From assembly GCA_973895155.1 (NCBI GenBank), contig OZ316899.1, forward strand, positions 11,213,675 to 11,277,674: a stretch of DNA of 64,000 bases, given 5' to 3'. Below the pieces are notes generated by a model. That model did not search any database. It was not told the DNA's origin and saw only the letters and a list, made by a program, of their open reading frames with translations. Below, piece by piece: positions 8,472-45,254 of this stretch; position 1 is the first letter of the stretch, and the number at the start of each line of letters is the position of its first letter. A program made the position numbers and the translations under genes. The stretch is from Marsupella aquatica (lineage: Eukaryota > Plantae > Marchantiophyta).

Positions 8472-9002
8472 GTCTATTTCGCCTGATTTTGGGCCTTATA
8501 AATATATGGTGTTCCTTTGTATCAAATGCCTATGACTTTCGCCTTGTCCCGCCCGATCGATCGGCTGTTGTGATGGATCAAGTTAACCAAAAGAAAGAGA
8601 AACGATAGCGATCCTTTCGCTCAAGGCACGGGACTCATCTGCCCCTTGAATCGCATCCAAATTGTCCCCGATGGAGTTCGTTCGTATGTCCTTGTGTGCG
8701 GTCCTCAAAGTTTTCAGTTTTCGCCAATGTCTTTTATTTTGTTTTTCACGTCTCGTCGCGTTGTCTCCTTCGTTCAAGGTTGAGAATCTTCGCTCGTGAT
8801 TAGGCTCGACGCTCTATGGCCAGTTCTTTGTTCTTCGATCATAAGCTTGTTTTCTCTATTCTCGGGAGGTAGTTAGGCGGTTATTCTCGCCATTAGAGCA
8901 AAAAACACACAACATTGTGTTGTTTTCTTTGTGTGGACCTCGATCTATTGAGTTGTCAGATTTTGGGGAGGGAGCACATGTAAAAAAAATGTAATTGAGC
9001 AA

Positions 9003-9017
9003 GTCGCGCTGATAACG
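9003..9017 (-). promoter_or_regulatory. Primer-binding site complementary to the anticodon arm of tRNA-Ile (half-tRNA priming)
   Basis: Minus strand CGTTATCAGCGCGAC directly after the LTR; plus strand GTCGCGCTGATAACG resembles eukaryotic tRNA-Ile(AAT) GTCGTGCTAATAACG as I recall it. Confidence 0.7.
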
Positions 9018-9164
9018 TGTTATGAATACACAAGATGATAGTAGTCAATAATCCCCACTCACTTCCATTATGCCAAGGACTTATATAGTCCAGAAGGGTT
9101 AACATGGTTGGGTTAATGTTAACCTATCCTATACTAGGGTTAAGTCATATTATGGGTTATAACA
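9018..9164 (-). repeat. 5' LTR of copia-1 (147 bp)
   Basis: Identical to 3372-3518; followed by TSD ATCGC. Confidence 0.97.
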
Positions 9165-20006: not shown

Positions 20007-20133
20007 TTTTTGGCAACCATACTGGGGAATGCCTCTTTGAGGGGTTCCATGAGAAGGAAGCTGCTAGTACTTGCAGCCCGAACCAAGAAACAGTTGGAGA
20101 CAGATCAAGAAGTGAGTTCAACAGAAGAAAAAC

Positions 20134-20716
20134 ATGAGTGGGAGGAAGGAATTCTAGACACTATTTTATTTTGATAAAGATGTGGAGCTACCTATTATTA
20201 CGACACTGAATGAGGAAGAGTACAAGACTTTAGTCAGCAAGGGAAGCAACACTAGAAGAGGGGATGTCATACCAATTGCACACACAACCGCGATGCATAC
20301 CGAATTGGTGATACGAGAAGCATGGAATGGAGTGTGGGGAGTCTGTAGATGCGCAACGCATCCACGGTTAAGCCTACACAAAGTCTTCAACAGCAGCGAT
20401 GATGGTACCAAGCAACAGTCTGCCAAAGTACTGCATCCAAAGTCGACTTCCTAAAATGAAGACATAATTAAAGAAAGTGCTGGAGTGGTGTCGATGGAAT
20501 TGCAACGAGTATCCAGTAGCAATTGCAATTCAAATTGGTAGAATTACTAGACAACTGAGCACAAAACTTAAAGAGAATATAGGCGCTTGCAAAAGTTGTA
20601 TGCTATGGTGCAAGGAGGATAGTTTTGAGTACTATTAGTTAGCACAGCTACTAACGATGTGTTTTGAGAAGGAGTTGATGACTCTTGAGGACTACACGCC
20701 TGCAATTAGCGAGTAG
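20134..20716 (+). pseudogene. Leader ORF4 (20134-20454) and ORF5 (20402-20716) of gypsy A
   Basis: Translations align with 33824-34114 and 34101-34415, e.g. LEWCRWNCNEYPVAIAIQIGRI and QLLTMCF. Confidence 0.7.
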
Positions 20717-20887
20717 ATATTGTTCCAATGGAGCACATAGTCTCAGTTAAGTAAAGGAGATGGTATCAATCTTGTATGTACTGAGATCGCAAAATTATTA
20801 TTCAATTACCACAAATTTTTGGAAACAACTTTACAATGAAGTTTGTGAATGGTGATTCTTTAAATCTTGATTAAGTGCAATCAATAG

Positions 20888-23800: not shown

Positions 23801-26800
23801 GCTTAGTGTTACCCTTTGGATTATGTAATGGACCCAACACGTTTCAAAGGCTTATGATGATGCTGTTTCATGAATACTTAAATCAATTCATGCAAATTAA
23901 ATATTTCTTGATGATTTTACAATTTATGGGGATGAAGAACAGCACATAAACCACCTAAGATTATGTCTGTTAAGATGTAGAGAAGGAGGAGTTAGTTTAA
24001 ACCTAGACAAATGTACATTTTTTTTACCATCAGGGAAAATATTGGGTCATATTGTATGCAAACAAGGTCTATTAGTAGATCCTGACAAAATTAAAATTAT
24101 AAAAGAAATGCCAGTACCCACAAGTGCAACACAAGTGAGAAGGTTTTTAGGAAGTGGAGGCTTCTATCGACGCTACGTTAAAGGTTACTCGCAAATCAGC
24201 GCTCCTTTAGCGCGATTGATGGGTAATCATCAAACTTTCAACTGGGACGACAACTGTCAGAAGGCTTTCAAAGAAATTAAGGAACGGCTGTGTCACACGC
24301 CAATACTCAAAGAGCCGGATTGGAAAAAGGAGTTCCATCTGCACACCGATGCATCATTGGTAGCAGTGGGAGCGATATTGGCCCAAATAGGAGAACAGGG
24401 TATAGATTTACCCGTTTATTATGCAAGTAGGTTACTAAATGTGCATGAAAAGAATTATACCACCACTCAAAGGGAAGCATTGGCCGTGATTTTCGCTATG
24501 AAGAAATTCAGACACTACTTGCTAGGAAACCATTTTGTATTCTTTGTAGACCACAACGCCTTGGTTAACTTAGTAAACAAACCTCAACTATCGGGAAGGA
24601 TAGCCAGATGGATTCTTTTGTTGGCAGAGTTTGATTACACCATTATTTACAAACCAGGAAAAACACATATTATACCAGATTATTTAAGTAGGCTAGAATC
24701 GGGGGAGGTATCTACAGTGGAAGATGATCAACTACCTGACATGGGATTATTTCAAGAGGAAAAGAAAGACTACCCGGTAAAATTGGTTACTTTGGATGAT
24801 GGAACCAATTTAGAGAGATATTTACGAACAGTTGAGTTTTCGGAAGGATTATCCAGTAAGGAAAGAAAAATATATGCATATAGGGCCAAGCTTTACACTT
24901 TGATTAATCATACGCTTTATTACAAAGGACCAGATGACATACTCAGAAGAGTGGTACCTGATGACGAGAAGCAAGAAGCATTAGTAACAGCTCACGAAGG
25001 TTTAGGAGGAGGTCATTTTGGTGCAGAAATCACCGTGAGGGAAATATTGCAACAAGGACAATGGTGGAGAACAATGCACAAGGATACCCGAGAATTTGTT
25101 TAAACTTATGATTTGTGTCAACGTACAGGGCCAATCAAAGAAAGTATGGAGTTCAGGCCAATTATTGCCCCTTATATTTTCCAAAAATGGGGATTGGATT
25201 TTATTGGACCAATAACACCACCTTCTAGGTTCAGTCAGAATCATTACATTTTAGCAGCAACATAATACACCACTAAATGGGTGGAGGCAGTAGCAACTTG
25301 CGAGAATACGGCCAATGTAACTGCAAAGTTTTTATATTAAAATATCATTACAAGGTATGGATTACCATGGGAGTTAGTAAGCGATCAAGGAACGCATTTT
25401 CTGAATAACACCATTCAGGAATTGACGGACAATTATCATATCAACCATCGGTTTTCAACCCCTTACTATCCACAATGCAACGGGCAAGTAGAATCCATAA
25501 ACAAAGTTCTACTAAATGTTTTAAGAAAAGTGATTAACGAGCAGCAGAACTACTGGGATGTACAACTACCAGCAGCCGTATGGGCACTTTGTACAGCGTA
25601 TAAAGTAACCATGGGACACACTCCATTTCAACTTATGTTTGGAGTAGAGGCTTGAATGCCATTGGAATATGAATTGCCAAGTCTACAAGTGGCCACAGAT
25701 TATGATATCAACAAAAATCCAAGTTTAACCCAGCGACTAAGAGAGTTGATGGAACTTACAGAGAAGAGAAGAAACGCAGAGGAACATTTGGAACATGTAC
25801 AAGGACAACGGAAAAGATGGATAGATGATCAGAGAGATATCACAATATTCTTTGAAAGAGAATTAGTGTTATGGTGCAGGAAAAAGGGCTCGCATAAAGA
25901 AAGGAAAATTAAAACTCAAATGGGAAGGGCCATTTATTGTACATAAGGTATGGGGTAATGGAACTTTTGATATCGCTAGTCAGGATGGAAGCGAGCAACA
26001 GCTAGTTAATGGAAACAAGCTCAAATCATATCACGTTTGAGATGATGTGTACTTAAGGGAGGTGGAGGATATCGTCAATGATCACGATGAGGAGGACGAC
26101 AGGGAGATTGTGCAAACATTAATTGTCACAATTAATCTACGGATTATCCCAAAGATGAGACAAGATGTTCCATCACAAAACAATAAAAGGACGAGTTAAG
26201 TAATCATATGGTAGCTTGCATGACTATCACTAATCAAGAGGTAAAAGATGGAAACACGAAAGGAAAGCTATCACACAAAAAGAAGGCGGAAGGTACAACA
26301 ACACAAATTAGAGAGGGGTCACGATCATACAAAGATACACAACGATTAACGGAAAAAGAACCGGACGGGAAAAACAAGGAATTAGTGAAGTACATGAATG
26401 AACCGACATCAGGTTTAAAAACCTCAATTCATATAAACCCGTATCAGATTCAGTCGGTTACGCTATCTAAAGAAGATCTATCTAAAATTTTCCACATTAA
26501 TGACTGGAGGTGTATAGTGACCAATTGGCGTGAGGAAAGAAGAAAGCCGTCTCCCTATCAGGCGGTAGTTATAGGCTGCACTAACGAACATACTTTGACA
26601 TGGATGGCCATGGATACTATACTCAACCATAATGCCATCCCCTGTATTGAGAATTGTGGTAAGTGGAATAATACTTATGTATGTAATTCTATCCTTAAAT
26701 ACCAAGATTCGGTCCCGTAAAGAATAAACAAAGCGATTTACCAAGGTTTTGTGATGTTCAAAATCTTCAAGCAATTTCTTTGCTGTTTTTCCTTATATAA

Positions 26801-29800
26801 TCCTGAAATGATTATTATATCACAAATGTTGAAATGAACTTCCTTAGGTTCAGCTTCTTCTCGATAGATTGAAAGGTTTTCTCTTCCCTCTAACTTCCTT
26901 ATACACTTATTAGTGATTGATTTTACGTCATGAAGGTTGGTACAATTCCCATTTCAACTAGATTTCAAAGGCACACCTTAGTTGTCCATTCAATTCTATT
27001 TCCTACAACTAATTCAAACATCAAAACTTGAATACTTAAGTTTGATCCATGAAATGTTTGAAATGCAATTGACGTGAGTGGTACAAGTCTTCTCCATTAA
27101 ATTCTTTCTCCTAAGCCCAATTTGACATGAGAAAAAGACCCACACTTGGTCAAAAATCAATGTTGAAGAAAAGACAATGAATCATGATCTTGGGAGTCCA
27201 CTTGTAAGGCTCCCTCAAAAGGTTTGAGATGCCAAAAGGTTTAGAAGCCTAAAAACCTTTTCTCATCTAAACTTAGGGTCCTAAAAGGTAAAATAAGTCT
27301 AAGACTCTCTATATCTAATTCCTAAGGGTTTCCTAATCTAAGTCTCTCTATATCCTATTCTATCTAACTCATGGAAAGGCTCAAGAGGTGAGAAAAGAGA
27401 TAGAAAACAATTTAAGTAACATATGCCGAAAAACCATGGAGAATCGGTTTGGGTTATTTTGAAGTTGATCTTTTGGGACCAAACTGAAATTCTTTGTGTA
27501 GCCCTTGGTAAGAGCTTTCCAACGCACCAAAAATCTCTTAAAAACGTCATCGGACCGATCCGCAATCGTCCGTCAAAGTTGCTGCCAAAAGTCTAAGCCG
27601 ATTTTCCAACTTCCAAAGCGATTTCTTTCGGATTTCTTTGAAGGCGATTGTTTGTCTGAAGCGATTCTTCCTTCCAAACTCAAACTTTTTAGCTTTCTTC
27701 CATACCGTTCCTTTCAGGCTTAAAATAGATTAAGGGGTGACGGATAAACCTGAATAAGCTTCAAGTAAGGTTAAAATGTTTCAAAATGTACCACTTTCCC
27801 TCCATAGCTCCGTTTTACCATTCCACAAGAATCACTTAACAGGAAAGTTACATGTCTTGTTAAAAACACATGGAAGTTGGGCAAAGGGGAAGAGAAGCGA
27901 GACCTTGGAAACTATAAGAGCATTGCTAGATCAAAGATCCTACTTACGCCTGGCCAGGAAGTTGAGAGCATCAACGGAGTGGAGTGGTTATCAGAGAGAA
28001 CTGAAGTTCAAGTGGATTAGAGTTGACGCTAATCGTTATTTGTTGCCAGTGAAAATGAAGTTGATCATGCTCAAGAGGTCAGGATCATTTGAAGACAATA
28101 ACCCCAGGAAGAAGTTGACGGTGGCCTAGTTATTGGAAACACCAGCAATGGAAGGAAGTATCCCACAGGAAGATCTCAGTGCGGAGGCTATGGATCGCGA
28201 GGAGGGAGAGTGTTCCACAGAGGTGGAAGAGATGTTATAGGAAACAGAGGGTTACGAAGAAGGGGGAAAACTGACTGAAGAACAAGAACCGGAGGAGCAA
28301 AGACCGGAGGAAGCAACACCTATACAAGAGAAGCAGACGGCAGACTTGCAAGAAGCGATCATACAACAAGAAATACTTTTAAGAGGAGGTAATCGAGTTG
28401 AATCACAGGAAGGAGATGATGAAGAAGAATCAGACAGTTTGGATGAGAGACTATTAACGAGTACCAAGGATGAGCAGAGGGTCGAGGAATTGGAACCAGA
28501 GACAACAATGGATGACTTGATTGGAGGAGCAGAGGTGGATGTGGAGATCGTGGCAGTCAACGAAGCAACACCACCAAGCGCCGAAATAACGATTTCCAAG
28601 AGGTTAGGTTTGAGGCAGGCCAAAATGATTAACAAAAGTAAGGGTAAAGCGTGTAGTCAAGTAATCAAATCAGATGAGGAGGAAACTGAGGAGGAGTCTA
28701 CAAAAGAGGAAGAGGAACCAGTTGCCAAGTGCGGGAACAAAAAGCAAATGAAGAAAGATCGCAACGCAGGAAAACATGTTCTCAAGTTCGAAGGGATGGA
28801 ACTGCATATATTGGAAAACATGAGGAGGGATAGTCATAAACAGTTCTTGAGAAGTCAAGGGCTCGAAGAGTTTGTTTATTCAAAATGGGCAACAACCACT
28901 GATCTGACACCGAAATATTACAACAAGTTCATAACCACGTGGACGGCTTCAGGGAATCAGGGGCACTGCAAGGGACAACCAATCAAGACTAACTAGGGAA
29001 CGTTGCAAGAACTATTCAGGTTGCCAACCAGAGGAGCTGAAATCAAGAAAATGATGGGGAAAACATGGTAGCCGGCTTCGTTTCCCCAACACAAAGAAGT
29101 TGATGACACCAGACGCGACAGTGCACAGATGATAAGATTAAAGAGAGATTAGAGTTCGTGACTCATGCATTGCACTGGAAGCACCAAGGTTGGAGTACCC
29201 ACAATTCATGATAAAGATAGTGGAGGAGGACGATGGTAAGCAGAAGAATTGGTCATCATTTTTCCATGAGGGCTTTCAGTAAGCACTTAAACGAGCAAAG
29301 AAACTGATTGCAACCAGAAGCCATCTACCAATCAAAATTGAGTCACACTTTCAGGTTCTGATCGGAGAGCAATTAAAGAGGACGACCACTCAAGTACAGG
29401 GGAGCAAACCCCAGCTAATAATGGGAAAATTATGCACAACTGATGACCAAAAGAGCAAGAGTGCAGCTACGGAAGAGGAATCAACAAAAGGAGAAGAAGG
29501 ACCACAAATGAATCAGCGTGGAAACGGGAAGAAGCAAATCACAGAAGCAGCAAAGCATGAAACAACAGAGAAAAACCAAGGGGAGAAAGAAGAAAGCATG
29601 GACAAATCCCTCAATGATGGAGACCCGCGAGTAAGAAGGGCAACCGTGGATAGAAGTAGTACCGAGCTATAGAGGATACAGACATTAGGTACGCAATAGA
29701 AACTTGCTCCACACCTGAGGTACAAATGGTGCAAAGTGTAATTGGAATCGAGAAGCTGAGAGAAGAGATCAAAAACGTTAGAAGAAGCAGTATCTTCACC

Positions 29801-30481
29801 ACCATGGCGGGGAAAATCATTAGCCAAGTAGCAATCTACTAAGGGATGAGCAATTACCAACATTTCTGGAACAGTAGCGAAAAGGAATTCATTGCAGCAA
29901 ATGCAAAGGCGGAAGAGCTAGAGAAGAAAACATTGGAGAATCAACAAATTATGGAGAAGCTATCAATAGAAATAGAGAGGCTACAAAAGAAAGAGGATAG
30001 TATCGCAACTATCAAACGGGGATGGAGACACGAAGAAACTACCATGGAATCACTGGCGGAGTTTTAAGGCATGGGGACATTCCAAACTGGGGGCTTAACG
30101 GTAAACTACAAAGGTGTGACCACGGCAATTAGGGCAGCGATTGAAGTAGAGAAGATGGAGAACTGCAAAGCACAGCTGCAATCCAAAGCGAATGCCGATT
30201 CCTTGAGAGAAATTAAGAGATTACAGATTCAGCTCAAGGATACAGTGGGTAAACATCGAAAAGAGGCCAACAAATGGGAAAAAGAGCGGAAGGAGGTCAA
30301 GGAGATAAAGTTGAAATGGGAAGAATTGGATTCCCAACTACATCAAACCACGAATACAGCTCTACCGGGAGAAAGAATGCTAGGGGAAAACAAGGAAGTG
30401 CTCAACACCAAAATTGACCAATTGAGTAAACAATTGCACATGGCGAACGAGCGAATTGCACATGGTGAACGAGCAAAGTAA
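20888..30481 (+). pseudogene. Gypsy A gag-pol plus 3' extension; many stops and frameshifts
   Basis: LLDGGSVVN (PR), FLDGYSGYSQV (RT), HTDASLVAVGA (RH), STPYYPQCNGQ (INT); downstream fragments align with the element B extension. Confidence 0.92.
26655..27827. mobile_element. Solo LTR (1173 bp) of an unrelated family inserted in gypsy A
   Basis: TGTGG...CCACA ends, TSD AGAAT (26650-26654, 27828-27832). Removing it restores IPCIEN|HLTGKLHVLLK, matching element B. Confidence 0.88.
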
Positions 30482-31417
30482 AGAAATCATTATGGCACAA
30501 CCTAGAGATTTGTTCTTGAATGAGCACATTTGCTGAGGAAGTTTACAAGAAGAGATTGTGATTGAATGCGAGAGTAATAATTGAGAGTGAATGGATTTAG
30601 AGATTGAGAAGATGGAAAGTTAAAGAAAAGATTGAGTGAGACAGTCTGATAAATTCTGAATTATAAAGAAAGTTAAGCTTGTTGAAGTTACAATCAGAGA
30701 ATTAGAGAGAAGTATGTTAAGACGGTCATATTCCGACCGCAGGAATGAATGAGGGTCAACTCGCTCAGAGTGAGGACGTTGAGGTGTAATACCTTACGAA
30801 ATCAAATTAATAGACAACTCGTAAGCAGTAGAGTCTGGCTGGAGTTTGTGTGTTTTGAGGACAACCATCTAATTGTTTTACACCTCCAACATAACGGAGT
30901 AGTCGTTGAATTGATATTCTACTTACGAATAGCTTTTCTTGATCTACTTCATTACACACGCAATTGATCGACTCCCTGGTGGGTGAATCGATGAGATGAT
31001 TGGATCTAACCAGATCACAACCCCGGAAGCATGAGTCCTAATGACAAAGTTACGAAGAACTACTCACTAATTAGACTTAGGCCGATTGAACTGTGGATCT
31101 ATTCAATTGGTTTGCACCTGATTACTCGTCGACTGAGAGAGGAAAGTATTCCAATTTGCATTTTTACTTATCGTGAATGGTGCGGGTTTATAGAAATTGT
31201 ATACAGGGAAGGATTAGTGTTAACTGAGTCGATTGTACCCAAGAAGTGGAAAGAAGAAGTAGACATTGAAGAACATTCAGCGGAAATCACAGGTTGAGAG
31301 TATGAAAACGATTTACTAGATTATCCTGTTGTTGGACGATTAATCAGTTAATGCAAAAGCAAACGGGTATATAAGGGTTATGTTGTGTTAATTGCAGGGA
31401 AGAACTAGTGTTTAACA
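30475..31417 (+). repeat. 3' LTR of gypsy A, 5'-truncated; contains ORF2 (30749-30967) and ORF3 (31031-~31350)
   Basis: Matches only 19064-20006 of the 5' LTR; no PPT seen upstream. Confidence 0.9.
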
Positions 31418-31847
31418 TCTACACTTGGTTCATACACATAAACCCTAAACTATTCATATTTGGCCTTATGGAACTCTTGCCAACTACAACTCCCACTATG
31501 CACAAGCTCACATCAACAGAGAAAGGATACAAAATGCATACTTACTATGGCTCCAAAGTTGCAAGATCAAGCAAGTAGTCAAACACACTGAAACAAAGCG
31601 GGTGGCAGTTTCAGTATCTCAGGCAATGCAAGTTTTGTTCATTTTGCAAGGTTTCAATATTCAAACTTCATGGAAGGAAGATATCATTATGGGAGAGGTT
31701 GATCGTTAAAATGGAATATAGTGGCTAGGATTTCTGTAAACGGTAACATTACACCGGTTAAATTATAGTCCTTTAGTCTTAGAAGCGTCAGCCAGAAGTT
31801 AATCCAGGGTATTTAGGGAGCAGCACTCAAGGACCGGTAGCAGTTCA

Positions 31848-32462
31848 TTGCATCCTGCGGAAAGGCTAGAATTAGGGGAGGCGACGATCATTGCGATTAG
31901 TGGCCGGATAGGAGTAGAGTTCTGTTATGAAGGTTGCGATGGCTTTCTAGCAGATGGCAAGGTCTGTGCCTTAGGCACAAGGGCTCGACAAAAAAGACAA
32001 GAGGGGACCGACATGGGAACCCCTATTAGCCAAAATTGAGTAGGGCATAGGTGTAAACCGCTAGGCGAAGGAGTGCTTATGTTTATGTTCACCATTTGGG
32101 TGAAAGAAGGGAGCTGTCGTGGGTGGGATGAGGCCGGGCAACAATTGTTTGGAATGAAGGGCAAAGAGTTTCGTCAACGATTCACGACCAGTGGGGCCAT
32201 TGAGGAATTCTGCAGAAATGTCATGCAGAAGAAGTGGAATCTGGTACTAAGGCGGGATAACAACCGTGATCAACGGATTGCATGGCGATTAATCACCGCC
32301 GGTCAAGTAATTGTCGCCAACAAAGCGACTACCGCTAAGGAAGGGGACGATAACCTAAATGTCATTTCACACTTAGCAGGATTGGCGATCGAAAGTCCGG
32401 AAGCTTCCAGTTCAGGCGCCATCAAAGAAGAGAATCAAAGGCGTCGTTGCACAGTTCAGTAA
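31848..32462 (+). pseudogene. LTR ORF1 (RPA70-C-like), 5' LTR copy; TGA at 32037-32039, ATG lost
   Basis: ORFs 31848-32039 and 32073-32462 are one frame. Confidence 0.7.
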
Positions 32463-33042
32463 CCACGAGAATCTTCTTGACATGTAAACACGGTTCTTGG
32501 CTCGCTCATCGTTCTTGGCAGGAGACAATTAGAGTTTCTTGGCAGATTAGCGCAGGAGACCGTGGCTGAAGGGCAAACCGTCCAACTGAAGTCGGCGCGC
32601 CCCGGAAAGTAGTTAGAAACCTCAGCAAAGAACAGACGCGAGGCATAGGTATTTAGAGGCTGTGGAGCGCTAGGCGCTCTGTCACTTTTTGCTAGGAGCT
32701 TGGTTGAGAGGTAGAGCCGGACTCACCTCAAGATTACCAGCGTTTTGTATTAGTGTCCCTACTCGTTTTGAGTAGTTTTCGATTATAAAGAGATGTGTAT
32801 GAATGCAATAGAGTGCAGAGGAACTTTGTTACCTTGTGCTTGAGCGGTGAGTAAGAGTCCAGATTCAACGTTGGAAGAATGTTGTGAATCAAGTCAGAAG
32901 AAACAGTAACTTTGAAAGTCATTCGAAGAAGGAGAGGCATTCGTGATTAATACTGAGAGTCGAGGAGTGCGGTTATGGGAGTTCGCGCGAAGTACTCGTT
33001 AGGAACATGTGTTAAGTGATTAATCGTAAATTGCTGGGATGA

Positions 33043-33285
33043 ATGGAAATCGTCTCACTACGAGTGAGGACCTTACGGTTTAGCACGTTAAGGCAGCGAT
33101 TTAACAGACAGCTCATGGGAAGCAAGGTCTGGTTGGAGATTGTGTGTATCCAGGACGTGACCTTGGTCGTCGTACACCTTCAACATACAGGGTCAACCGT
33201 TAAACTGGGGTTCCTACTACGGATACCTCTATTTAAATTGCTTGATTTAGCCAAAGACAGATCGATTGCCAGGAAGGCCGATTGA
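33043..33285 (+). CDS. LTR ORF2, 80-aa hypothetical protein (also 44583-44825)
   Basis: Homologous in frame to 30749-30967, 19338-19556 and 60766-61026. Confidence 0.7.
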   Translation: MEIVSLRVRTLRFSTLRQRFNRQLMGSKVWLEIVCIQDVTLVVVHLQHTGSTVKLGFLLRIPLFKLLDLAKDRSIARKAD

Positions 33286-33327
33286 GGGACAGCAGGACCT
33301 ACCTCGGTCATTGCTACTATAACAACC

Positions 33328-33648
33328 ATGAATGTAGACAGTAAGGAGGACAAGCCTTGCTCCTTGATTAAGTTAAGACCACTGGAATTGTGGATCTGTT
33401 CCATCGGTTCCCACCTGATTACCAGAGCGTTACGCCAGGAGAGTATTCCCATCTGTTTAATTACTTACCGCTACTGGTGTGGGTTTATCGAGATCATCTA
33501 CAGAGAGGGTCTGGTGTTGACTGAAGCAGTCGTGCCCAAGAAGTGGAAGGAAGAGTTAGACATTATAGAGCACTTGGTAGGATTCACTTACAGGGACTAT
33601 ATAGAGGAAGAGGGGAGTACCCCGCTAGAATTTTGGTTGATCGTTTAA
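33328..33648 (+). CDS. LTR ORF3, 106-aa hypothetical protein (also 44868-45188)
   Basis: SLIKLRPLELW..IGSHLI, WCGFIEI.YREGLVLTE and VPKKWKEE conserved at 19620-19940, 31031-31350 and 61049-61369. Confidence 0.75.
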   Translation: MNVDSKEDKPCSLIKLRPLELWICSIGSHLITRALRQESIPICLITYRYWCGFIEIIYREGLVLTEAVVPKKWKEELDIIEHLVGFTYRDYIEEEGSTPLEFWLIV

Positions 33649-33718
33649 GCGGGAGATACTGCGAAGAAGGCAATTAGACGTCCATTAATCGCAAGTCAAA
33701 CTGGGCGTTTAACATTTT

Positions 33719-33736
33719 TGGCGACCATACTGGGGA
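33719..33736 (+). promoter_or_regulatory. PBS TGGCGACCATACTGGGGA (tRNA-Arg-like) after a TTTT spacer
   Basis: Starts TGG, 18 nt, near-identical at 20011-20028; resembles the tRNA-Arg PBS of Athila/Tat/Ogre-type elements. Confidence 0.8.
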
Positions 33737-33823
33737 ACGCCTCGTTGAGGGTTCCGAGAGAGGAGCAACTGCTACGACCAGCAGTCCGAACCAGGAGAGA
33801 GAAGAGCAAATCAAGAAGGGCGA

Positions 33824-34114
33824 ATGGGTGACATGAACTCACCAAAGGAGTTCTAGACGTTGTTCTATTTCGAGAAAGATGCCGAAGCAGCAATCATAAC
33901 GACACTGAACAAGAAAGAGCACTCGATACTGGCCAACGGAAGGAGCAATGCACGAGAAGGCGATGTTATGATAATCGCTTACACCACGCCCACACACACC
34001 AAGTTGGTACTTCGAGAAGCGCATGGCGGAACCTAGAACGTGAGGAGGCGGGCGATTCATTTGCAATCCTCTGTTTGGAGCAGTGTTTACAACAGCGACC
34101 ATGCCACCAAGTGA
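33824..34114 (+). pseudogene. Leader ORF4 of gypsy B (internal stops)
   Basis: KEF*TLFYFEKDAEAAIITTLN...GDV..IA.TT..HT.LV.REA aligns with 20134-20454. Confidence 0.6.
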
Positions 34115-34415
34115 TCGGTTACCCCAAGGCTACACGCAGTACCGCCTACCCAAGAGGAAGGAGGACCTTAGAAAGATCTTAGAGTGGTGTCGTTGGAATC
34201 GAAATGAGTACCCTGTTGCGATAGCATTCCAGATAGGCAGAATCGCTAGGAAATTAAGTTCTAAACTAGAGGAAACCACAGGGACTTGCCCAGGATGTAT
34301 GATGTGGAGTCAACATGACAGTTTTGAGTTTTCTATGTTAAAACAGTTATTAACGATGTGCTTTAACGAGGAACTCATGGCTCCAGAAGCCTGCACTCCT
34401 AGTTTAAGCGAATAG
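34101..34415 (+). CDS. Leader ORF5 of gypsy B, 104-aa hypothetical protein with a CxxC motif
   Basis: MPPSDRLP...LEWCRWNRNEYPVAIAFQIGRI...CPGC...QLLTMCF, conserved with 20402-20716. Confidence 0.7.
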   Translation: MPPSDRLPQGYTQYRLPKRKEDLRKILEWCRWNRNEYPVAIAFQIGRIARKLSSKLEETTGTCPGCMMWSQHDSFEFSMLKQLLTMCFNEELMAPEACTPSLSE

Positions 34416-34638
34416 GAGTCATTTCGCAGAGGGCATAGCCACAGTTAAGTAAAGGAGAGAGAGAAACTGATTAATAGAGGTCATAACATTAGTCAAGTAA
34501 AGGAGACAGTAGAAGGTCTCCATTTTTGTGAAAAGTAACGAGTAATAAGAACTTGACGCCACCTTTGTAAAGAAAACACCTGATCATCGAGTATATTGCT
34601 TGTAGGCAGAGAAAGGGCTTTGCTACCCCAAAAGATAA

Positions 34639-37600
34639 ATGGGCAAGATGCCCTTCAATCCCAACGAAGGGGAAATGGCAGGGGAGTTCGAACCTTTCCA
34701 AGAAAGCAGACCCAGACTTGAGGCCGAAGAACGAATCGAGAATTCAAGGACTCAAGATAAGGTCGAAGAAAACCTGGAAGAAGCCATGGAACGACTTAAA
34801 ATCCACCAAGGAGCTGGCAGTAGTTCAAGATCGGCTCCTACCAGAAGGGTTAAAATACCCATGTTCAAGGGAGCACCTGATGAAGATGCCGATACCCACT
34901 TAGCATGTTTCGAAGAAATGCTCAAAGCTAACCACGAACAGAACGACACAGCCCGATTAGAGCTGTTTCCCAGCTCGCTGGACAAGGAGGCTTTTGTATG
35001 GTACACTCAATACCCAGCTGACCATTTCAAAACTTGGCCTGATTTTTCAAAAGAATTCTTAGATCATTACAGAAGGGCTAAGGAAGAGTCCGATTTGTAT
35101 AGCATTCTGCAAAACATGACTCAGAAGAAAGGAGAACCACTACAGAACTATATTGGACGGTTAAAGGTAACAATGAGACGATTAACGAATAAACCGTCCG
35201 ATGGGCAACAAATTAGCTGGATGAGAAAGGCTGTGAAGGGGAGTCTAGTCACAGTGGTGGAACAAAATCCCACTTCTAATGCTGATGAATACGAGAAAAG
35301 ATTAATACGGCTAGAGGGCATTACTCAGATGCTTAACCAGGAAAAGAACGAGAGCAGTAAGGATGAAGAGAGGGTTAATCGGAAAACAGAAACTTCTAAG
35401 GTAGAAGTCAAGGAAAACCGAGAGCGAGGTGAGGTTAGTACTCGTAAATTCTGTGAAATACATATGAGGCCTGGACACACTACTCAGGAATGCAACCAAA
35501 ATCCTTTTAAAAAGAAACCTAGCCTAGGTGTAAATCAGGTAGGAACAAGCAAACAAGATGGGGATAGGATGGAGAGTAGCCAGGGATATTACAATCCTGA
35601 TCGTAACGCAAACCGAAGGCCTTATAAGGATGGTGGGGCTAAATACCCACCGATTTGCTATTACTGTCGACTAACCGGCCACATCAGGGGCCCCGATTGT
35701 GAATTATGGATGAAGCATATGAAAGAAAAGGAAGAAATAGCGGGGAAAGCCCCAGCACCTGTGAACACTGTGCAGGTGTCGACATATGTGGTGACAAGAT
35801 CTCAGGGGCAGCCAGAGGACTCAACCCCAACCAATCCCACGGAGACTGAGGGAGGATTCGATTGGAGCCAAATGGACGCAACCACACGAGAAATAGCGGA
35901 TGAAATTCGCCACAAACAGCAGAACAAGACGCTGCCACGGCCTGAACGATTAATGCGTTCAGACCCTTACACAGAGACGGATACTGAAATTCTAGAGGAG
36001 GGAGTGACGATGGGGGGATTCGATCAAGAAACGGGACAACTCCCACGAGACAAAGAACCACCGAATAACCCTGCCGAAGCGAACCAGCGAATAATGGATA
36101 AGCTAGTGCAACTCATCGCGAAGACCAGAGTCGACATCACTGTCGAGGAACTGTTCCAGTTAGCACCACAGTGCAAGGAAGCAGTAATGAGACGGTTGGG
36201 AGGCAGAATTAGTCCTACCACACTGCCAGGGGTACCACTGTACCAAGCTGGGAAGATTCCCCTGATCGACAAAGGAGCCGTAGTACAGATCAGCGTAAGG
36301 GGCATCAAACTGAAGAACGTATTGCTGGATGGAGGGTCAGCCGTAAACCTCATGAGTGAGCAGACCTACAGACTGCTAGGCAGAGTCAAGCTCTTACCGG
36401 CCCCTTTTAATCTGGTAATGGCCGATCAAAGCAGCTGTCACCCACTGGGTTACGTGCCAGACTTACCAATGCTGATTTCAGGCATCAAGTACAATTTAGG
36501 AGTGGTAGTTTTGAGAGAAGCAGATTCTACCCAAGGACAACCCATGTTGTTAGGACAACCTTGGCTAAGACAGGCCAAAGTAAAACAACACTGGGGGGAA
36601 GAGAAGGATTATATAAAAATAGAACACAGAGGAGAGACCTTCAAGATCAGGACCAAGGCCATCGAAGACGGTGTACCACCTATGGCCAGAGTCTGTACTT
36701 TGAACTGGGCAGAGGGGTTGAATGAGGATGAAGAAGAGACCTATTTAAAATGCCGTCTAGACTTAGTACCAATTTCAGATATGGAAATAGTCAAGCTCGA
36801 CAAGATGCAAGGAATGACCAGAGAAAAGATGGATCATGATCTACGAAATGATCTGTTTAAACACATAGACCCGCAAGGCATTCAGGAGTGCTCGTTAAAG
36901 GAGGAAGAAGCACAGACCACCTTGCAGGATCTAGCAGAGAAAGTGGTGGGATGGAGTGCCACCGAGGAAGAGCACATTCAGAAAGTCGATTTGAGTGACA
37001 CCGAACGACCGCGAGAAGTAAAGATAGGAAAACAGCTTTCCCCCGAGCTCAAAGAGGAACTTGTTACACTACTCACCAAATTCCGAGATGTTTTTTCCTG
37101 GGATTACACGGAGTTGAAGGGAGTACCAGAGTCAATTGGCGTACATCAAATCCGACTCGTACCAGGGTCAGTACCGGTGCAGACGCAACGATATAGGATG
37201 AACCCCAACTATGCGGAAAAGGTAAAAGAAGAAATCCAAAGGCTCCTTGATGCCAAATTCATTGAACCCGTTAAGCGTTATACGTGGCTATCTCCGATAG
37301 TCGTAGTACCTAAGAAAAATGGGAAGTTGAGAGTCTGCATTGATTTCAGAAAATTAAACGCAGCTACCATAAAAGACCCTTTTCCAGTACCATTTCTAGA
37401 AGCAGTTCTGGATGTGGTAGCAGGAAAATCAGCTTATTCATTTCTAGATGGGTACAGCGGGTACAGTCAGGTCCGGTTAGCAACAGAAGCGAGGGAGCTA
37501 ACCACTTTCATTACGGAATGGGGCGCTTTCCAGTGTCTCGTATTACCCTTTGGATTATGCAATGGGCCTAGTACATTTCAGCGATTAATGATGATGTTAT

Positions 37601-40600
37601 TTCATGAGTATTTGAATCAGTTTATGCAAATCTTCCTGGATGACTTCACCATATACGGAGAGGAAGAGCAACACATAGGCCACCTCAGATTATGTCTCTT
37701 AAGATGTAGGGAAGGGGGAGTCAGCCTGAACCCTGATAAGTGCACCTTCTTTGTACCATCGGGCAAGATATTAGGACACATAGTTTGTAAACAGGGCTTG
37801 TTAGTAGACCCAGATAAGATAAAAATCATTAAAGAGATGCCAGTCCCCAATAGTGCAACCCAAGTCAGAAGGTTCTTGGGAAGTGGAGGTTTCTATCGTC
37901 GTTACATCAAGAGTCACTCCCAAATCAGTGCCCCATTGGCACGATTAACGGGTAACCATCAAACGTTCACTTGGGATGACGACTGTCAGAAAGCGTTTGA
38001 AGAAATCAAGGACCGGTTGTGCCATGCACCCATACTCAAGGAACCAGATTGGAAGAAGGAGTTCCATCTACATACAGATGCCTCTCTGGTGGCGGTGGGA
38101 GCGGTGTTGGCACAGAAGGGAGAACAAGGTATCGATTTACCAGTATACTATGCCAGTAGACTGTTAAACGTGCATGAAAGGAATTACACTACGACCGAGA
38201 GAGAAGCGTTAGCCATGATATTTGCCGTAAAGAAATTCAGGCATTATTTACTCGGTAATTGCTTTGTGTTTTATGTAGACCACAATGCCTTAGTCAATTT
38301 GGTAAACAAACCGCAGTTGTCAGGCAGAATAGCAAGGTGGATTTTACTGCTAGTAGAATTCGATTACACCATCATTTATAAACCAGGGAAGACCCATGTT
38401 ATACCCGATTATCTTAGTAGATTAGAGTCAGGAGAGACCTGTAAGGAAGGGGATGATCAATTGCCTGATATGGAGTTATTCCAAGGCGATCAAGAGACAT
38501 ACCATGTAAAACTGGTCACCTTAGATGACGAACCGGCGTTAGAAAGGTATTTACGCACAACAGAATACCCTGACGGGTTATCCAGTAAAGAGAGGAAAAT
38601 CTATGCATACAAGGCGAGGCCCTATACTTTAATCAACCACGTGCTTTATTACAAAGGGCCGGATGATATACTACGAAGGGTCATCCCAGAAGAGGAGAAG
38701 CAGGAAGCCTTGATCGCGGCACATGAGGGGCTAGGCGGAGGACATTTCGGCACCGAAATCACCATAAGGAAGATTCTGCAGCAGGGACGCTGGTGGGTAA
38801 CGATCCATAAGGACACTCGGGAGTTTGTGAAGACTTGCGATTTGTGTCAGCGAACGGGCCCAATAAAAGAAAACATGGAATTCCGGCCCATAATAGCGCC
38901 GTACATCTTCCAGAAATGGGGATTGGACTTCATCGGGCCCATTACCCCACCTTCCAGGTATAGCCAGAATCAGTATATTTTGGCAGCAACGGAGTACACA
39001 ACGAAATGGGTAGAGGCAGTCGCAACTCGCGACAACACCGCGCGAGTAACGGCTAAGTTCATATATCAAAACATCATTACGAGGTATGGATTATCGGGGG
39101 AACTGGTAAGCGATCAGGGGTCGCACTTCATGAACAAGGTCATCCAGGAGCTAACCGACAACTATCATATCAGTCACCGGTTCTCAACGCCCTACTACCC
39201 GTAGTGTAACGGACAAGCAGAATCAACGAATAAGATTCTACTCAATGTTTTACGGAAAGTGATTAACAACCAACAGAACGATTGGGACGTTCAGCTACCC
39301 GCCGCAGTATGGGCATTCCGAACGGCGTATAAGGTAACCACGGGCCACACTCCCTTTCAATTAATGTTTGGAGTAGAAGCTCATATGCCAGCAGATTACG
39401 AACTTCCCAGTCTGCAAATCGCCATCGGGTACAACATTAATCATAATCCGTCTTTAAGGAAACGATTAAGGACATTACTGGAGGTAACCGAAACCCAAAG
39501 GAAGGCTGAAGAACGATTAGAATATGTACAAGGACAATGCAAACGACGGATAGACGATCAACGGGATGTCACCACGTTCACTGAAGGAGAATTGGTACTT
39601 TGGTGCCGGAAAAGGGCACGCATAAAAAAAGGGAAGTTAAGACTTAAGTGGGAAGGGCCTTTCACTATACTCAAGGTATGGGGGAATGGAACCTTCAAAA
39701 TTGCCAGCCAGGACGGCAGCGAGCAGCAGCTGGTGAACGGGAACAAAATGAAGACATATCACGTTAGAAACGACGTGTACTTGCGGGAGGTAGAAAGCGC
39801 GGTTAACGACTACCTGGACGAAGACGATGGCGGAAATGACCACGATGCAGTACCAACACGGGCCGAGGATAGCGACCGCTATCAACCGTTAACAGCTACA
39901 CGAAACCGGAATCAAGTAGGGTTAGGGGAGTACCAATCATCTCCCAGAGTCGTGGCTTGTATAAGCGTGGCTCCCTACCCCGCAGCGGCGGAGACCACAA
40001 AAGGGGAAGAACTACCGGCGCACACAGGACCATCCTTGGCTCGCCCGGCCAGGCCAAGTACCACCTCTAACCACTATCGACAGCAGCGAAGGGACCAAAC
40101 AAACGAACAAGTACGGACAGCAGCGATTAAGGGATGTACGCTAGCAGATTACGTGAATGAAGTAGTCCCATCAAGCGGACCGTTTAGTTCAGCGAAGACA
40201 AGCCAAATCAAATCAATTGTACTAGCAACAGAAGATCTATCGGAGATATTTCAAGTTCATGATTGGAAATACAAACTAACGAAAGGACAGGAAGAAGAGC
40301 GGGAACGATTTCCGTATAGGATAGTGATCGTAGGGTGTACTCACGGAAAATCATCCACCTGGATTGTGGATCGGATACTGATAGGACCTAACTCAATACC
40401 GTGCATAGAGAACTACACCACGGGAAAATTACATGTGCTTCTAAAAGCTTACGAGATGGGGGAGTCCGAGAATCAAATACCCCTATCAGCAGGGGAGTTG
40501 CTAAGACGGAAACCCTATTTGCGGTTGGCGCGGAAGCTATGAGTGACTGCAGAGTGGAGCGGCTATCAGCGAGCACTGAGGTTCGAGTGGACAAGAGTGG

Positions 40601-43203
40601 GGAGCAAATATTACACATTGCCTATAGGAATGAAGGTAGTAACCCTCAAGAGAGCAGGCAAATTTGCAGACAAGTACCCCAGGAAACGCACGACGATGGC
40701 AGAACTGCTAGAAACGCCAGCCATGGAAGGAACGACGTCATACACAGAAGAAGAACATGCGAAAGGAATGGAAACAGAGGTGCAAGAAGTCCTCACGGAC
40801 ACGACTATTAACGATCAAGGAGTCGTCGGGAAGCAGCCACCGATCGCCGATAGTGTAGCAGGAGCGGAGACGGAAATGGGAGAGCAAGAACTCAAAATGG
40901 AGCCGGGGTCCGCGCGGCAGGATGTCGAAGCAGAAAAGGAAGTGCCGATCAAGGTACCAGAAGCTCAGGTCGAGAGGTTGGAGGTGCTGTCAGTGGGGAA
41001 CGAAGGACCGCAGGTAAAACAAAAATTTACGCTTGCAGATTGGCTGACCAAAACCGACTCGGAGGTGGAGATTGCGGCAGTCACAGCAGCCATACTTGAG
41101 GAATCGACGCCTCCCAACACGAAGAGAACTCGCCCGAACAAGGTGAAATTTATTAACAAGGAACGGCCCAAGAGGAGAGCGACCGATTCAGAGAAGAAGA
41201 AGGCCAAGATAATCAAACCCGAGGAGGAAAAAGAAGAGAGTAGCTCAGCCAGCGAGGAAGAAGAGCTTGGCAACGAAACAACAGTCCAGAAGAAGAAGTC
41301 AGTTGGATCGAGTAGGGCCCGTCCGAGGGAAGTTTTCCATGTGCTTAAATTCGAAAGGATGGAGCCCCATATCTTGAAGAACATGAGTGACCCAACTCAC
41401 CGGAAGTTCTTACGGTCGCAAGGATTAGAGGATTTTGTGAATTTGACGTGGAGTGTTCCAACTAAGCTACAAGCCGAGAACTACAGCAAATTCATCTCCA
41501 CGTGGAGGCCCACCGAGAACCAAGGGAGATGCAGGGGGCAAATCATCAAGACCGACCCTCGGACATTGCGTGAGTTATTCAGTTTGCCAGAGCGAGGAGC
41601 GGAAATTAAGAAGCGGATGGGGAAGACCTGGCAGCCCGCCTCATTTCCACAGCACAAGGAGGTAGATGACACATGAGGCTATCAGACCAAACACTGCACT
41701 AATGAGAGAATCAAAGAAAGGTTAGAATTCGTTACCCATGCCCTGCATTGGAAACGACCTAGGTCAGAGTACCCAGGATTCATGATAAAAATCATGGAAG
41801 AAGGGAGTGGTAAGCAAAAGAACTGGTCAGCGTTTTTATATGAGGGATTCCATTCGGCGATTAAGCGAGCTCAGCGATTAATAAGTAGCCAGAGCAGTTT
41901 GCCGGTAGAAATTGAATCGCATTTTCAAGTTTTAATAGGAAGTCAACTAAAGGAAGGAGGTAGCAAGAGAGGAAGTCCAGTAGTAGCACGACCCAAGACC
42001 GCAGACAAGACAGAGAAGGTCGAACCGACCGAGAAGCGCAAGAGCGCAAGGCAGGACGACAATGCATACGAGGAAGATAATCAACTAGGAGACGATCGAT
42101 CGCCAATGCGAGTAACGAGGAGGACGGTCACGGAGCAGCCACCAACGAAGGACCAGGAGGGACCAGCTGAAACCAGAAAGTACTCGACGGCAGCGATTGA
42201 AGACGAGGATCTTAATTACGCTTTATCAGCGATTAGAGAAAAAGAGGCACAACTAGTACTGCAGGATGGAGGATTGGAAGGGCTACTAGCTGAGATCGAA
42301 ATGGTACAAAAGAATAGCATTTTCAACGTCATGGTGGGACAGATCGTCAGTCAGATGTCAATTTATCAGGGGATACAAAGTGCTCTATTACAGTTGCAGT
42401 GGGACAAGCATGAAGAAGACATGGCAAGGAAGTTAGCCCAGCAGGAAGAATCGACAAAATGGGCAGTAGAGGTCGAAGGGACGATTAAGAAGTTACTCAC
42501 CCGAAATGCAGAGTTGTTACAAGAAAACGATCAATTAGCGACTAGTGAACGAGGATGGAGGCACGAAGAAACAACCATCAAAGACTTAGCCAAATTCCTG
42601 GGCATCGAGAAGATACAAGCAGGGGGGTTAACAAGCAACTATAGGGAAGTAATCGCGGCCATCCGAGCAGCGATTACCACGGTAAAGATGGAGAAACGAA
42701 AAGCCAACCTACAGACGGAGCAGGGTATAGAGAAGCTAAAGGAGATCGAGAAGTTGAGACTCCAACTCAAAGAAGAAGCAGCACAACAACAGAGCATAGC
42801 CAGCAAGTGGGAAGTTGAACGCCAACGTGTAGAAGAACTGAAGCATAAAATCAAGGATCTGGATACACAACTCAGCCAAGCCACCTTACAAGGGGATCCG
42901 ACGACGGCTTCAGGAGAATCCACGCTGGAGACCGCAAGGTATAAAGAAGCAGCCGAAAGTAGGATCGATCAATTAGAAGTACAACTTGCAGACGCCTTGA
43001 AACAACGACCAGAGGGGGACGAAGTGAACGGGGAGCTGGAACAGCTCAGGTCAGAGCATGACCAATTGTCACAAGAATTGGAAGACAAGGAAAGATCTAT
43101 TCTAGATCTCAAGTCGGAGGTGAGGAAGCTCAAGGCACAAGTCCGAACACAGATCACCCCAATTAAGAAACCAGGTGTTAGCGGGGGCAATGGAGTCGAA
43201 TAA
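34639..43203 (+). CDS. Gypsy B gag-pol plus ~1100-aa extension in one frame (2855 codons, three internal stops)
   Basis: Gag with CEIH..GH...C and CYYCRLTGHIRGPDC, PR LLDGGSAVN, RT FLDDF, RH HTDAS, INT HEG..GH/CDLC and DDE. The four ORF-track segments share a frame; stops at 39202, 40540 and 41674. Confidence 0.93.
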
Positions 43204-43265
43204 GCAGCAACGATTACCGAGCAATACGGACATCAAGGGCGAGTCCGTAGGTAAGTAAAGGAGGA

Positions 43266-45254
43266 TGTAAACGGTAACATTACACCGGTTAAATTATAGT
43301 CCTTTAGTCTTAGAAGCGTCAGCCAGAAGTTAATCCAGGGTATTTAGGGAGCAGCACGCAAGGACCGGTAGCAGTTCATTGCATCATGTTAGAATGGCGG
43401 AAAGGCTAGAATTAGGGGAGGCGACGATCATCGCGATTAGTGGCCGGATAGGAGTAGAGTTCTGTTATGAAGGTTGCGATGGCTTTCTAGCAGATGGCAA
43501 GGTCTGTGCCTTAGGCACAAGGGCTCGACAAAAAAGACAAGAGGGGACCGACATGGGAACCCCTATTAGCCAAAATTGAGTAGGGCATAGGTGTAAACCG
43601 CTAGGCGAAGGAGTGCTTATGTTTATGTTCACCATTTGGGTGAAAGAAGGGAGCTGTCGTGGGTGGGATGAGGTCGGGCAACAATTGTTTGGAATGAAGG
43701 GCAAAGAGTTTCGTCAATGATTCACGACCAGTGGGGCCATTGAGGAATTCTGCAGAAATGTCATGCGGAAGAAGTGGAATCTGGTACTAAGGCAGGATAA
43801 CAACCGTGATCAACGGATTGCATGGCGATTAATCACCGCCGGTCAAGTAATTGTCGCCAACAAAGCGACTACCGCTAAGGAAGGGGACGATAACCTAAAT
43901 GTCATTTCACACTTAGCAGGATTGGCGATCGAAAGTCCGGAAGCTTCCAGTTCAGGCGCCATCAAAGAAGAGAATCAAAGGCGTCGTTGCACAGTTCAGT
44001 AACCACGAGAATCTTCTTGACATGTAAACACGGTTCTTGGCTCGCTCATCGTTCTTGGCAGGAGACAGTTAGAGTTTCTTGGCAGATTAGCGCATGAGAC
44101 CGCGGCTGAAGGGCGAACCGTCCAACTGAAGTCGGCGCGCCCCGGAAAGTAGTTAGAAACCTCAGCAAAGAACGGACGCGAGGCATAGGTATTTAGAGGC
44201 TGTGGAGCGCTAGGCGCTCTGTCACTTTTTGCTAGGAGCTTGGTTGAGAGGTAGAGCCGGACTCACCTCAAGATTACCAGCGTTTTGTATTAGTGTCCCT
44301 ACTCGTTTTGAGTAGTTTTTGATTATAAAGAGATGTGTATGAATGCAATAGAGTGCAGAGGAACTTCGTTACCTTGTGCTTGAGCGGTGAGTAAGAGTCC
44401 AGATTCAACATTGGAAGAATGTTGTGAATCAAGTCAGAAGAAACAGTAACTTTGAAAGTCATTCGAAGAAGGAGAGGCATTCGTGATTAATACTGAGAGT
44501 CGAGGAGTGCGGTTATGGGAGTTCGCGCGAAGTACTCGTTAGGAACATGTGTTAAGTGATTAATCGTAAATTGCTGGGATGAATGGAAATCGTCTCACTA
44601 CGAGTGAGGACCTTACGGTTTAGCACGTTAAGGCAGCGATTTAACAGACAGCTCATGGGAAGCAAGGTCTGGTTGGAGATTGTGTGTATCCAGGACGTGA
44701 CCTTGGTCGTCGTACACCTTCAACATACAGGGTCAACCGTTAAACTGGGGTTCCTACTACGGATACCTCTATTTAAATTGCTTGATTTAGCCAAAGACAG
44801 ATTGATTGCCAGGAAGGCCGATTGAGGGACAGCAGGACCTACCTCGGTCACTACTACTATAACAACCATGAATGTAGACAGTAAGGAGGACAAGCCTTGC
44901 TCCTTGATTAAGTTAAGACCACTGGAATTGTGGATCTGTTCCATCGGTTCCCACCTGATTACCAGAGCGTTACGCCAGGAGAGTATTCCCATCTGTTTAA
45001 TTACTTACCGCTACTGGTGTGGGTTTATCGAGATCATCTACAGAGAGGGTCTGGTGTTGACTGAAGCAGTCGTGCCCAAGAAGTGGAAGGAAGAGTTAGA
45101 CATTATAGAGCACTTGGTAGGATTCACTTACGGGGACTATATAGAGGAAGAGGGGAGTACCCCGCTAGAAGGTCGGTTGATCGTTTAAGCGGGAGATACT
45201 GCGAAGAAGGCAGTTAGACGTCCATTAATCGCAAGTCAAACTGGGCGTTTAACA
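43266..45254 (+). repeat. 3' LTR of gypsy B (1989 bp), with ORF1 43394-44002, ORF2 44583-44825 and ORF3 44868-45188
   Basis: Direct repeat of the 5' LTR, preceded by PPT, followed by TSD. Confidence 0.97.

Follow-up and report, generated by a model that had tools for sequence, protein, structure and literature searches.

Small overlapping frames ahead of gag in a liverwort Ty3/gypsy element, one of which may be a stand-alone reverse transcriptase thumb

The window analysed here, a 64-kb stretch (64,000 nucleotides) of Marsupella aquatica contig OZ316899.1 numbered from its first letter, consists of plant repeat DNA in which a Pfam scan recognises copia, CACTA and Ty3/gypsy elements. Three related gypsy copies are present, namely the elements A and B and one solo LTR (59471-61436), which represents a third LTR lineage in the window. 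Element B (31735-45254), which like A and all their features given below lies on the plus strand, is 13.5 kb long and flanked by the target duplication ATTTC. Its 5′ LTR (31735-33714; TG...CA) is 98.3% identical to its 3′ LTR (43266-45254) and is followed, four bases further on, by a PBS beginning with TGG (33719-33736). A single frame, gag-pol (34639-40542), encodes Gag, a protease motif, RT, RNase H, integrase and a C-terminal extension, with one premature stop at 39202-39204, and the 3′ polypurine tract occupies 43253-43265. Between pol and the 3′ LTR lie two long sense ORFs (40630-41676 and 41782-43203) with charged, coiled-coil-like products, which match no Pfam family at cut-off and are partly conserved in A. 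Element A (18457-31417; target duplication TCTAC) is older, its LTRs being 95% identical, and its gag-pol is dead, interrupted by frameshifts and, over 1942 aligned codons, by 12 stops. The 3′ LTR of A has lost about its first 600 bp in a deletion that also took the polypurine tract, the TCTAC duplication still being intact. In both elements an in-frame stop codon immediately precedes the first gag ATG (34636-34641 in B, 20885-20890 in A), which has a pyrimidine at position −3, and the context is stronger at a Met about 12 codons further on.

Elsewhere in the window, a SET-domain ORF (12123-12947), possibly a captured chromatin-modifier domain, stands directly upstream of CACTA tnp2 transposase ORFs (13217-15996, plus strand). 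Two copia elements (3372-9164 and 50871-56301, minus strand) have short LTRs of 147 and 192 bp that are 100% identical, which indicates very recent insertions, and inverted short-repeat arrays about 1 kb apart at 57525-58616 resemble the ends of a small DNA transposon.

The Pfam domains of B appear in the order Retrotrans_gag, RVT_1, RT_RNaseH, Integrase_H2C2 and rve, which, with the TG...CA LTRs, the target duplication, the PBS and the polypurine tract, identifies a Ty3/gypsy element. The best PDB sequence match of its RT is the Ty3 RT (E 3.5e-79), and the RT is 77% identical to a protein of the leafy liverwort Calypogeia fissa, the other 119 matches listed reaching at most 58%. An RT tree of 45 rows picked from these 120 matches, with no labelled clade references and with the A row partly out of frame and hence on a long branch, groups B and A with Calypogeia at 100/100, among RTs from Riccia, Adiantum and metagenomes, and places angiosperm and animal RTs apart. 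The RT relationships by themselves thus point to a leafy liverwort as the likely host. The native RNase H retains its catalytic motifs; Pfam recognised no additional (archaeal-type) RNase H in pol or in the 3′ and leader ORFs scanned, so that the element lacks this mark of the Tat clade (sensu REXdb). Provisionally, it is best placed among the aRH-less non-chromoviruses of seed-free plants, a set that includes Tat Z1/Z2, Phygy and Selgy. Phygy and Selgy are described in the REXdb survey (PMC6317226) as short and without extra ORFs, unlike B.

Two small frames precede gag. ORF4 of B (33833-34114, 93 codons) contains premature TAG codons at 33854-33856 and 34034-34036 and ends with a TGA at 34112-34114, and ORF5 (34101-34415) is intact, encodes 104 amino acids and starts 14 nt within the end of the ORF4 frame. 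Their homologues in A are found at 20134-20454 (ORF4, one premature TAG) and 20402-20716 (ORF5, 62% identical to B in amino acids and with two premature stops), as expected from the initial annotation, which had described two homologous frames between PBS and gag in both elements. It had also described ORF5 as starting inside the end of ORF4 in another frame. This is correct in that the ORF5 ATG lies 268 nt past the ORF4 ATG, in the +1 frame, in A as in B, but the overlap of B (14 nt, compared with 53 nt in A) lies only beyond the two TAG codons. The start originally assigned to ORF4, 33824, has no ATG in A, and the common start is 33833 (20134 in A). In contigs of four public DNA runs (X1 to X4; see below) the ATG at 33824 is read otherwise in all of the depth of X2 and X4, in 155 of 344 in X1 and in none in X3, and 33833 is the more likely start.

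ORF5 of B is separated from gag by an ATG-free spacer (34416-34638). An 11-mer within it has four copies in the 64 kb, on the plus strand only: the one at 43253 is the 3′ polypurine tract of B, and the other three (34447, 34495 and 20749) lie in the ORF5-gag spacers of B and A. Other copies, represented by public DNA contigs, differ from the first spacer repeat at two places and leave a purine run. The spacer 11-mer may provide an additional primer for the plus strand close to the 5′ end.

The 583-nt block that begins with the ORF4 ATG and ends with the ORF5 stop aligns between A and B with zero indels and 353 identical positions (60.5%), ORF5 being 315 nt long in both; the spacers flanking it are of unequal length in the two elements, at 119 vs 127 nt on one side and 224 vs 172 nt on the other. 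Differences fall in excess on third codon positions in ORF4 (32 of 62, P = 0.002) and in ORF5 (59 of 114, P = 4e-5). For ORF4, pN/pS amounts to 0.28 over the initial 64 codons and to 0.38 over the whole frame, and for ORF5 to 0.24; gag and RT have 0.06, and the two remaining plus frames 0.85-2.4. Between the two elements, synonymous sites have reached saturation (pS 0.7-0.9). Constraint is weak or absent in the final ~30 codons of ORF4. We conclude with high confidence that ORF4 and ORF5 are selected coding genes of the element.

The premature stops in both elements had been overlooked when the frames were first described. The TAG in ORF4 of A sits at the site homologous to the first TAG of B. 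We placed contigs from four public DNA runs (two organism labels, two studies) on B and summed the contig depth. In these contigs, which drop rare variants and of which one run may come from the window's own source, the first stop of B is read as a sense codon in 248/273, 430/430, 535/535 and 1480/1480 of the depth, and the second in all of it in all four runs; no indel within ORF4 or ORF5 appears among the 40 differences listed out of 94. The initial annotation had held that its proposal would fall if the two frames were absent or broken in most young copies, and this is not what the contigs of the four runs contain. Both stops of B are in a CHG context, and among the sites at which B has an adenine and other copies differ, 12 of the 18 listed are in CG or CHG, both stops included, over a background of 28%. 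Judging from this context and from the other copies, the stops of the window copies quite probably arose by decay of methyl-cytosines after insertion. Methylable stop-prone sites of B are hit more often in ORF4 (2 of 4) than in pol (1 of 88, P = 0.004), an excess that may reflect local hypermutation or an ORF4 that is relaxed or dispensable in the B line. Reading the shared ORF4 TAG as a readthrough codon or a splice acceptor was rejected, because other copies have sense there. Two 120-nt 'skips' were likewise rejected as splicing, each being a single low-depth DNA contig with sides under 30 nt.

Further small ORFs are borne by the LTRs. ORF1 (31860-32330, 18565-19125, 59583-60059 and 43397-43870, plus strand) lies at the 5′ end of the LTR with a pN/pS of 0.40, and Pfam and PDB sequence searches with it were blank; by eye it resembles the C-terminal OB fold of RPA70. 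ORF2 (33043-33285, 80 aa) has an ATG kept in three LTR lineages and a pN/pS of 0.39-0.42, and ORF3 (33328-33648, 106 aa), which has no internal Met in B, has a pN/pS of 0.29-0.30. Both are under selection, and conserved ATG and stop codons delimit each of ORF2 to ORF5 separately. In the solo LTR an ATGA overlap joins ORF2 and ORF3, which in B are in the same frame and 42 nt apart. They belong to the gag leader only if transcription begins upstream of them, and the initial count of up to four genes ahead of gag hinges on this start.

Neither ORF4 nor ORF5 has a hydrophobic segment (maximum Kyte-Doolittle 19-mer about 0.5-0.7), and both products are predicted to be soluble. The ORF4 model is of low confidence (pLDDT 60) and predicted to be beta-rich, with no credible structural match and none to RT, and an alignment word search, PDB sequences and Pfam gave no homologue outside the window. 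We also considered ORF4 as an additional RNase H and rejected this for lack of a match in Pfam, PDB sequences or the fold search. The viral, metagenome and genome contigs searched contained no related loci, and an Rfam scan returned one row, at chance level. For ORF5, Pfam, PDB sequences and the word search gave no match and the Atlas nothing usable. Searched with a profile, 1.84 billion proteins yielded three matches, one of which is a true homologue, a 94-aa metagenomic protein (P0126/P0127) with 40% identity over 88 aa and a shared terminal TPxxSE motif; the other two, P0124 and P0125, were dropped as tandem-repeat artefacts. In the Atlas, P0126 had only matches under 0.9. A zinc finger in ORF5 was rejected, since three of the four Cys are not kept in P0127.

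With P0126 in the alignment, AlphaFold2 models ORF5 as three helices (mean pLDDT 77), and it is this model that resembles the thumb of RT, a likeness absent from the initial annotation. In the PDB, the top 36 Foldseek rows are all RTs (foamy virus, HIV including the isolated thumb 5t82, MLV and CaMV), the best with a probability of 0.99, a TMq of 0.52 and an E-value of 0.24, and the top 10 in BFVD comprise seven named retroviral or pararetroviral polyprotein or RT entries and three unnamed ones; E-values across both databases range from 0.055 to 2, none of them significant at database scale. A VIA comparison of the model with foamy RT residues 357-447 gives Z 7.2 and an rmsd of 3.4 over 81 aligned residues, and the ranges aligned in Ty3 RT (277-351) and HIV RT (about 230-320) are likewise thumbs. 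In a search made independently of Foldseek, unrelated helical bundles rank level with or above foamy RT (Z 7.2; alpha-catenin, for example, has 7.5), so the fold alone does not decide the identity as a thumb.

Sequence comparisons point to the same region. Against an RT-RNase H profile built from B and 111 RT matches (112 sequences), hhalign places ORF5 on the thumb over 62 columns, with a score that 1 of 60 shuffles attained in one test and 2 of 729 column shuffles in another; the probability of 1-3.5% and the E-value of 0.012-0.039 are not significant at database scale. When RT was scanned in 22 windows, the thumb window scored highest for ORF5 and was reached by none of 300 shuffles, compared with 38, 65 and 282 of 300 for ORF2, ORF3 and ORF4. 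A thumb HMM scores ORF5 of B and P0127 each above 1000 of 1000 shuffles and above 2973 and 2976, respectively, of 2976 decoy windows from real proteins. The distant homologue scores higher than ORF5 of B (11.3 vs 6.5 bits), and the decayed ORF5 of A does not score, 358 of 1000 shuffles reaching it. The motif W-x7-F-x2-L-K-x2-L, which was defined after seeing the alignment, is present in 78 of the 111 thumbs and in none of the 2976 decoys. In the opposite direction, the ORF5 profile did not retrieve the thumbs of the window's own pol genes. ORF5 matches animal gypsy thumbs about as well as those of its own clade and angiosperm thumbs poorly, so that a donor lineage cannot be named.

As modelled, ORF5 resembles the thumbs of Ty3/gypsy, retroviral and caulimoviral RTs (PDB 4ol8, 7o0g, 5t82 and 8r0s) in a three-helix arrangement, and it has in common with them the conserved Pro before helix 1, the Leu/Ile positions of the hydrophobic core and the W-x7-F-x2-L-K-x2-L helix. 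It differs in being encoded alone, in having only 14-20% identity and in two insertions of about five residues. The thumb grips the nucleic-acid duplex via its first helix. In this helix, 110 of the 111 thumbs have an invariant glycine, at which ORF5 has E or Q, and the YxRRFI motif is also absent from ORF5. Residues 11-60 of ORF5 are net basic (10-12 K+R vs 3-7 D+E). A prediction of a complex between RT-RNase H and ORF5, run without alignments, scored 0.00, which counts neither for nor against an interaction. From the model and the sequence profiles, with a signal at twilight level, descent of ORF5 from an RT thumb appears somewhat probable. Since the glycine is lost though the core is kept, an accessory role is likelier than that of a working piece of polymerase, and we tentatively suggest that ORF5 might be a docking or nucleic-acid-clamping accessory.

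Our main reading, to which we assign a probability of about one half, is that ORF4 and ORF5 are selected soluble accessory frames and that ORF5 is a diverged, stand-alone RT thumb, which would serve the RT complex of its own element in trans. The rather unlikely alternative that ORF5, although as real a gene as ORF4, is an orphan three-helix protein with a convergent likeness to the thumb and an unrelated role, such as countering host silencing, is consistent with the generic bundles that tie on Z, the database E-values, the missing glycine, the blank reverse profile search and the blank results in Pfam, PDB sequences and the Atlas. Against it stand the choice, by model-based and sequence-only methods alike, of the same ~60 residues in an RT-RNase H profile of 500, the higher score of the distant homologue and the distribution of the motif between thumbs and decoys. 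A thumb could also be the last piece of a dead second RT, split into fingers, palm and thumb over ORF3 to ORF5, or these could be exons of one spliced gene. In its favour, ORF3 finds its best RT alignment at the N-terminal fingers motif, which precedes the thumb, as such an order requires, and the sequence of the 3′ polypurine tract recurs as the 11-mer behind ORF5, as it would in the remnant of a fused mini-element; however, ORF2, ORF3 and ORF4 fail against shuffles in the 22-window scan, on which a split second RT spanning ORF2-ORF4 was rejected, and the separate ATG and stop of each ORF and the beta-rich ORF4 model without RT match make the idea improbable. We consider it more improbable still that the ORFs are relics, functional in an ancestor and now decaying passengers. 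Stops do occur in three of the four window copies of ORF4 and ORF5, and in excess in ORF4 of B, but the frames are free of indels in spite of saturated synonymous sites, other copies have sense codons at the stops of B, and the gag-pol of A is itself dead. The reading of ORF5 as a diverged thumb can be extended, as a possibility rather less probable than the reading itself, to a liverwort retrotransposon lineage that detached the thumb of a reverse transcriptase and keeps it as one of four separate leader genes; made from the leader, the protein would be a dedicated accessory or regulatory subunit of the RT complex of its own element, and a second polypurine tract would lie right behind its gene.

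How these frames and gag would be expressed depends on the leader. A stretch of 489 nt in B (33335-33823), comprising the ORF3 body, the LTR end, the PBS and a spacer, contains no ATG where 5.7 are expected (P = 0.002), and no other ATG-free gap in the window, whichever the strand, is as long; the 223-nt spacer between ORF5 and gag also contains none, 2.3 being expected (P = 0.046). The bodies of ORF4 and ORF5 in B (580 nt) have 14 ATG, compared with 8.8 expected. A, whose corresponding 509 nt contain 8 ATG and whose gag spacer contains 5, shows no depletion, and in the solo LTR depletion is mild (4 vs 8.7, P = 0.02). Leaky scanning in RTBV is reported to be marked by AUG-free upstream ORFs (PMC5902531), a feature found here in ORF3 and the following spacer of B, not in ORF4 and ORF5 and not in A. 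By this analogy, the 489-nt stretch fits leaky scanning to ORF4. Because both ORF4 and ORF5 retain ATG triplets, scanning would not continue to gag, in agreement with the initial proposal that plain scanning cannot reach it. That proposal had also included a caulimovirus-type shunt, against which the absence of unusually stable leader structure argues: whole-leader folding is no better than that of shuffles (z −0.3 in B and −1.2 in A, with 6-12 shuffles only), and no conserved long-range stem was seen in A and B. B has one local hairpin, at 34420-34539 (z −3.8), that A lacks. We found no strong conserved splice sites, only weak CAG acceptors common to A and B shortly before ORF4, shortly before ORF5 and in the gag spacer, and one 6/9 donor at 33064 common to three LTRs. 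The B, A and solo LTRs each have a single TATAAA in the noncoding part upstream of ORF2; these do not align among the three, so any start site is a guess.

A possible course of expression is that transcription starts in the noncoding LTR spacer upstream of ORF2 and that ribosomes leak past ORF2 and ORF3, via the AUG-free 489 nt, to ORF4. Ribosomes would then come to ORF5 by reinitiating at the overlap, or on a processed RNA, and gag-pol would be read from a shorter RNA, spliced or internally started, with its 5′ part in the AUG-free spacer. We lean towards such a shorter RNA for gag, if with less than even confidence, in preference to reinitiation on unspliced RNA, which we find doubtful, and to a shunt, which appears improbable; the weak splice sites are a point against it, and MDG1 elements, which are reported to make Gag from unspliced RNA that carries two small ORFs (bioRxiv 10.1101/2025.03.14.642691), make it non-obligatory. 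The doubtful alternative, a single unspliced polycistronic RNA with leaky scanning to ORF4, termination-reinitiation to ORF5 and reinitiation across the AUG-free spacer to gag, draws on this same precedent, on the overlap kept in A and B, on the ATGA-type overlap in the solo LTR, on the AUG-free spacers of B and on the lack of convincing splice sites. However, reinitiation after ORFs of ~100 codons is reported to need an activator or a TURBS-like element (PMC5902531), and we found neither a TURBS-like element nor evidence for a TAV-like activator; in addition, the overlap varies in length between B and A, and ORF2 and ORF3 of B are separate within one frame.

Several features of this leader have precedents. 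The Drosophila MDG1 group (412, mdg1 and Stalker) has two translated small ORFs before gag, sORF1 and sORF2 (bioRxiv 10.1101/2025.03.14.642691), and resembles our element in having two small selected ORFs (~70-110 aa) upstream of gag in Ty3/gypsy. As described there, sORF2 is transmembrane and fusogen-like, whereas ORF4 and ORF5, with a maximum KD19 of 0.52-0.72, are not FAST-like; here, in addition, a plant is the host, the two frames overlap and the LTR carries two further ORFs. The closest conceptual precedent is that of the moss Tat elements, in which an extra RNase H is kept as a separate ORF before gag (PMC10508981). There too, an extra Pol-type domain forms its own pre-gag ORF in a Ty3/gypsy element of a seed-free plant, but that domain is RNase H, whereas ours is RT-thumb-like and no additional RNase H accompanies it. 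The 5′ extra ORFs of Ogre/Tat lineage IV encode a plant mobile domain and a coiled coil (PMC4408406; PMC6317226), and these elements share with ours a sense extra ORF before gag, a large non-chromovirus organisation, long LTRs and a 5-bp target duplication. They are described with one long ORF, however, and not with several of ~100 codons as here, where no plant mobile domain is present. The REXdb survey counted extra ORFs of at least 250 codons only (PMC6317226), and frames as short as ORF4 and ORF5 fell below its threshold. With ORF I-II of RTBV and badnaviruses and with CaMV the element has in common short overlapping ORFs before the polyprotein, and here a long AUG-free stretch before ORF4; the shunt and TAV of CaMV differ, since here we found no stable leader hairpin and no transactivator. 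Given what is described of MDG1 and plant Tat elements, the complexity, initially likened to that of complex retroviruses, is less unique than was claimed. Searches of the open literature by title and abstract yielded no stand-alone RT thumb and nothing on point about extra ORFs of liverworts.

According to PMC7264820, the origin and function of most extra ORFs of plant LTR retrotransposons are not known. Should ORF5 be a free RT thumb, the origin of one of these ORFs could be traced, to a Pol subdomain recycled as an accessory protein, in parallel with the separate RNase H ORF described for moss Tat elements. Small pre-gag ORFs are already known, and a stand-alone RT-thumb-like protein would give these elements a helper protein of a new kind. 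If true, this would provide a testable claim on how retroelements acquire accessory subunits or self-limiting factors, and the leader offers a natural test case for a nuclear plant RNA that serves several genes ahead of gag.
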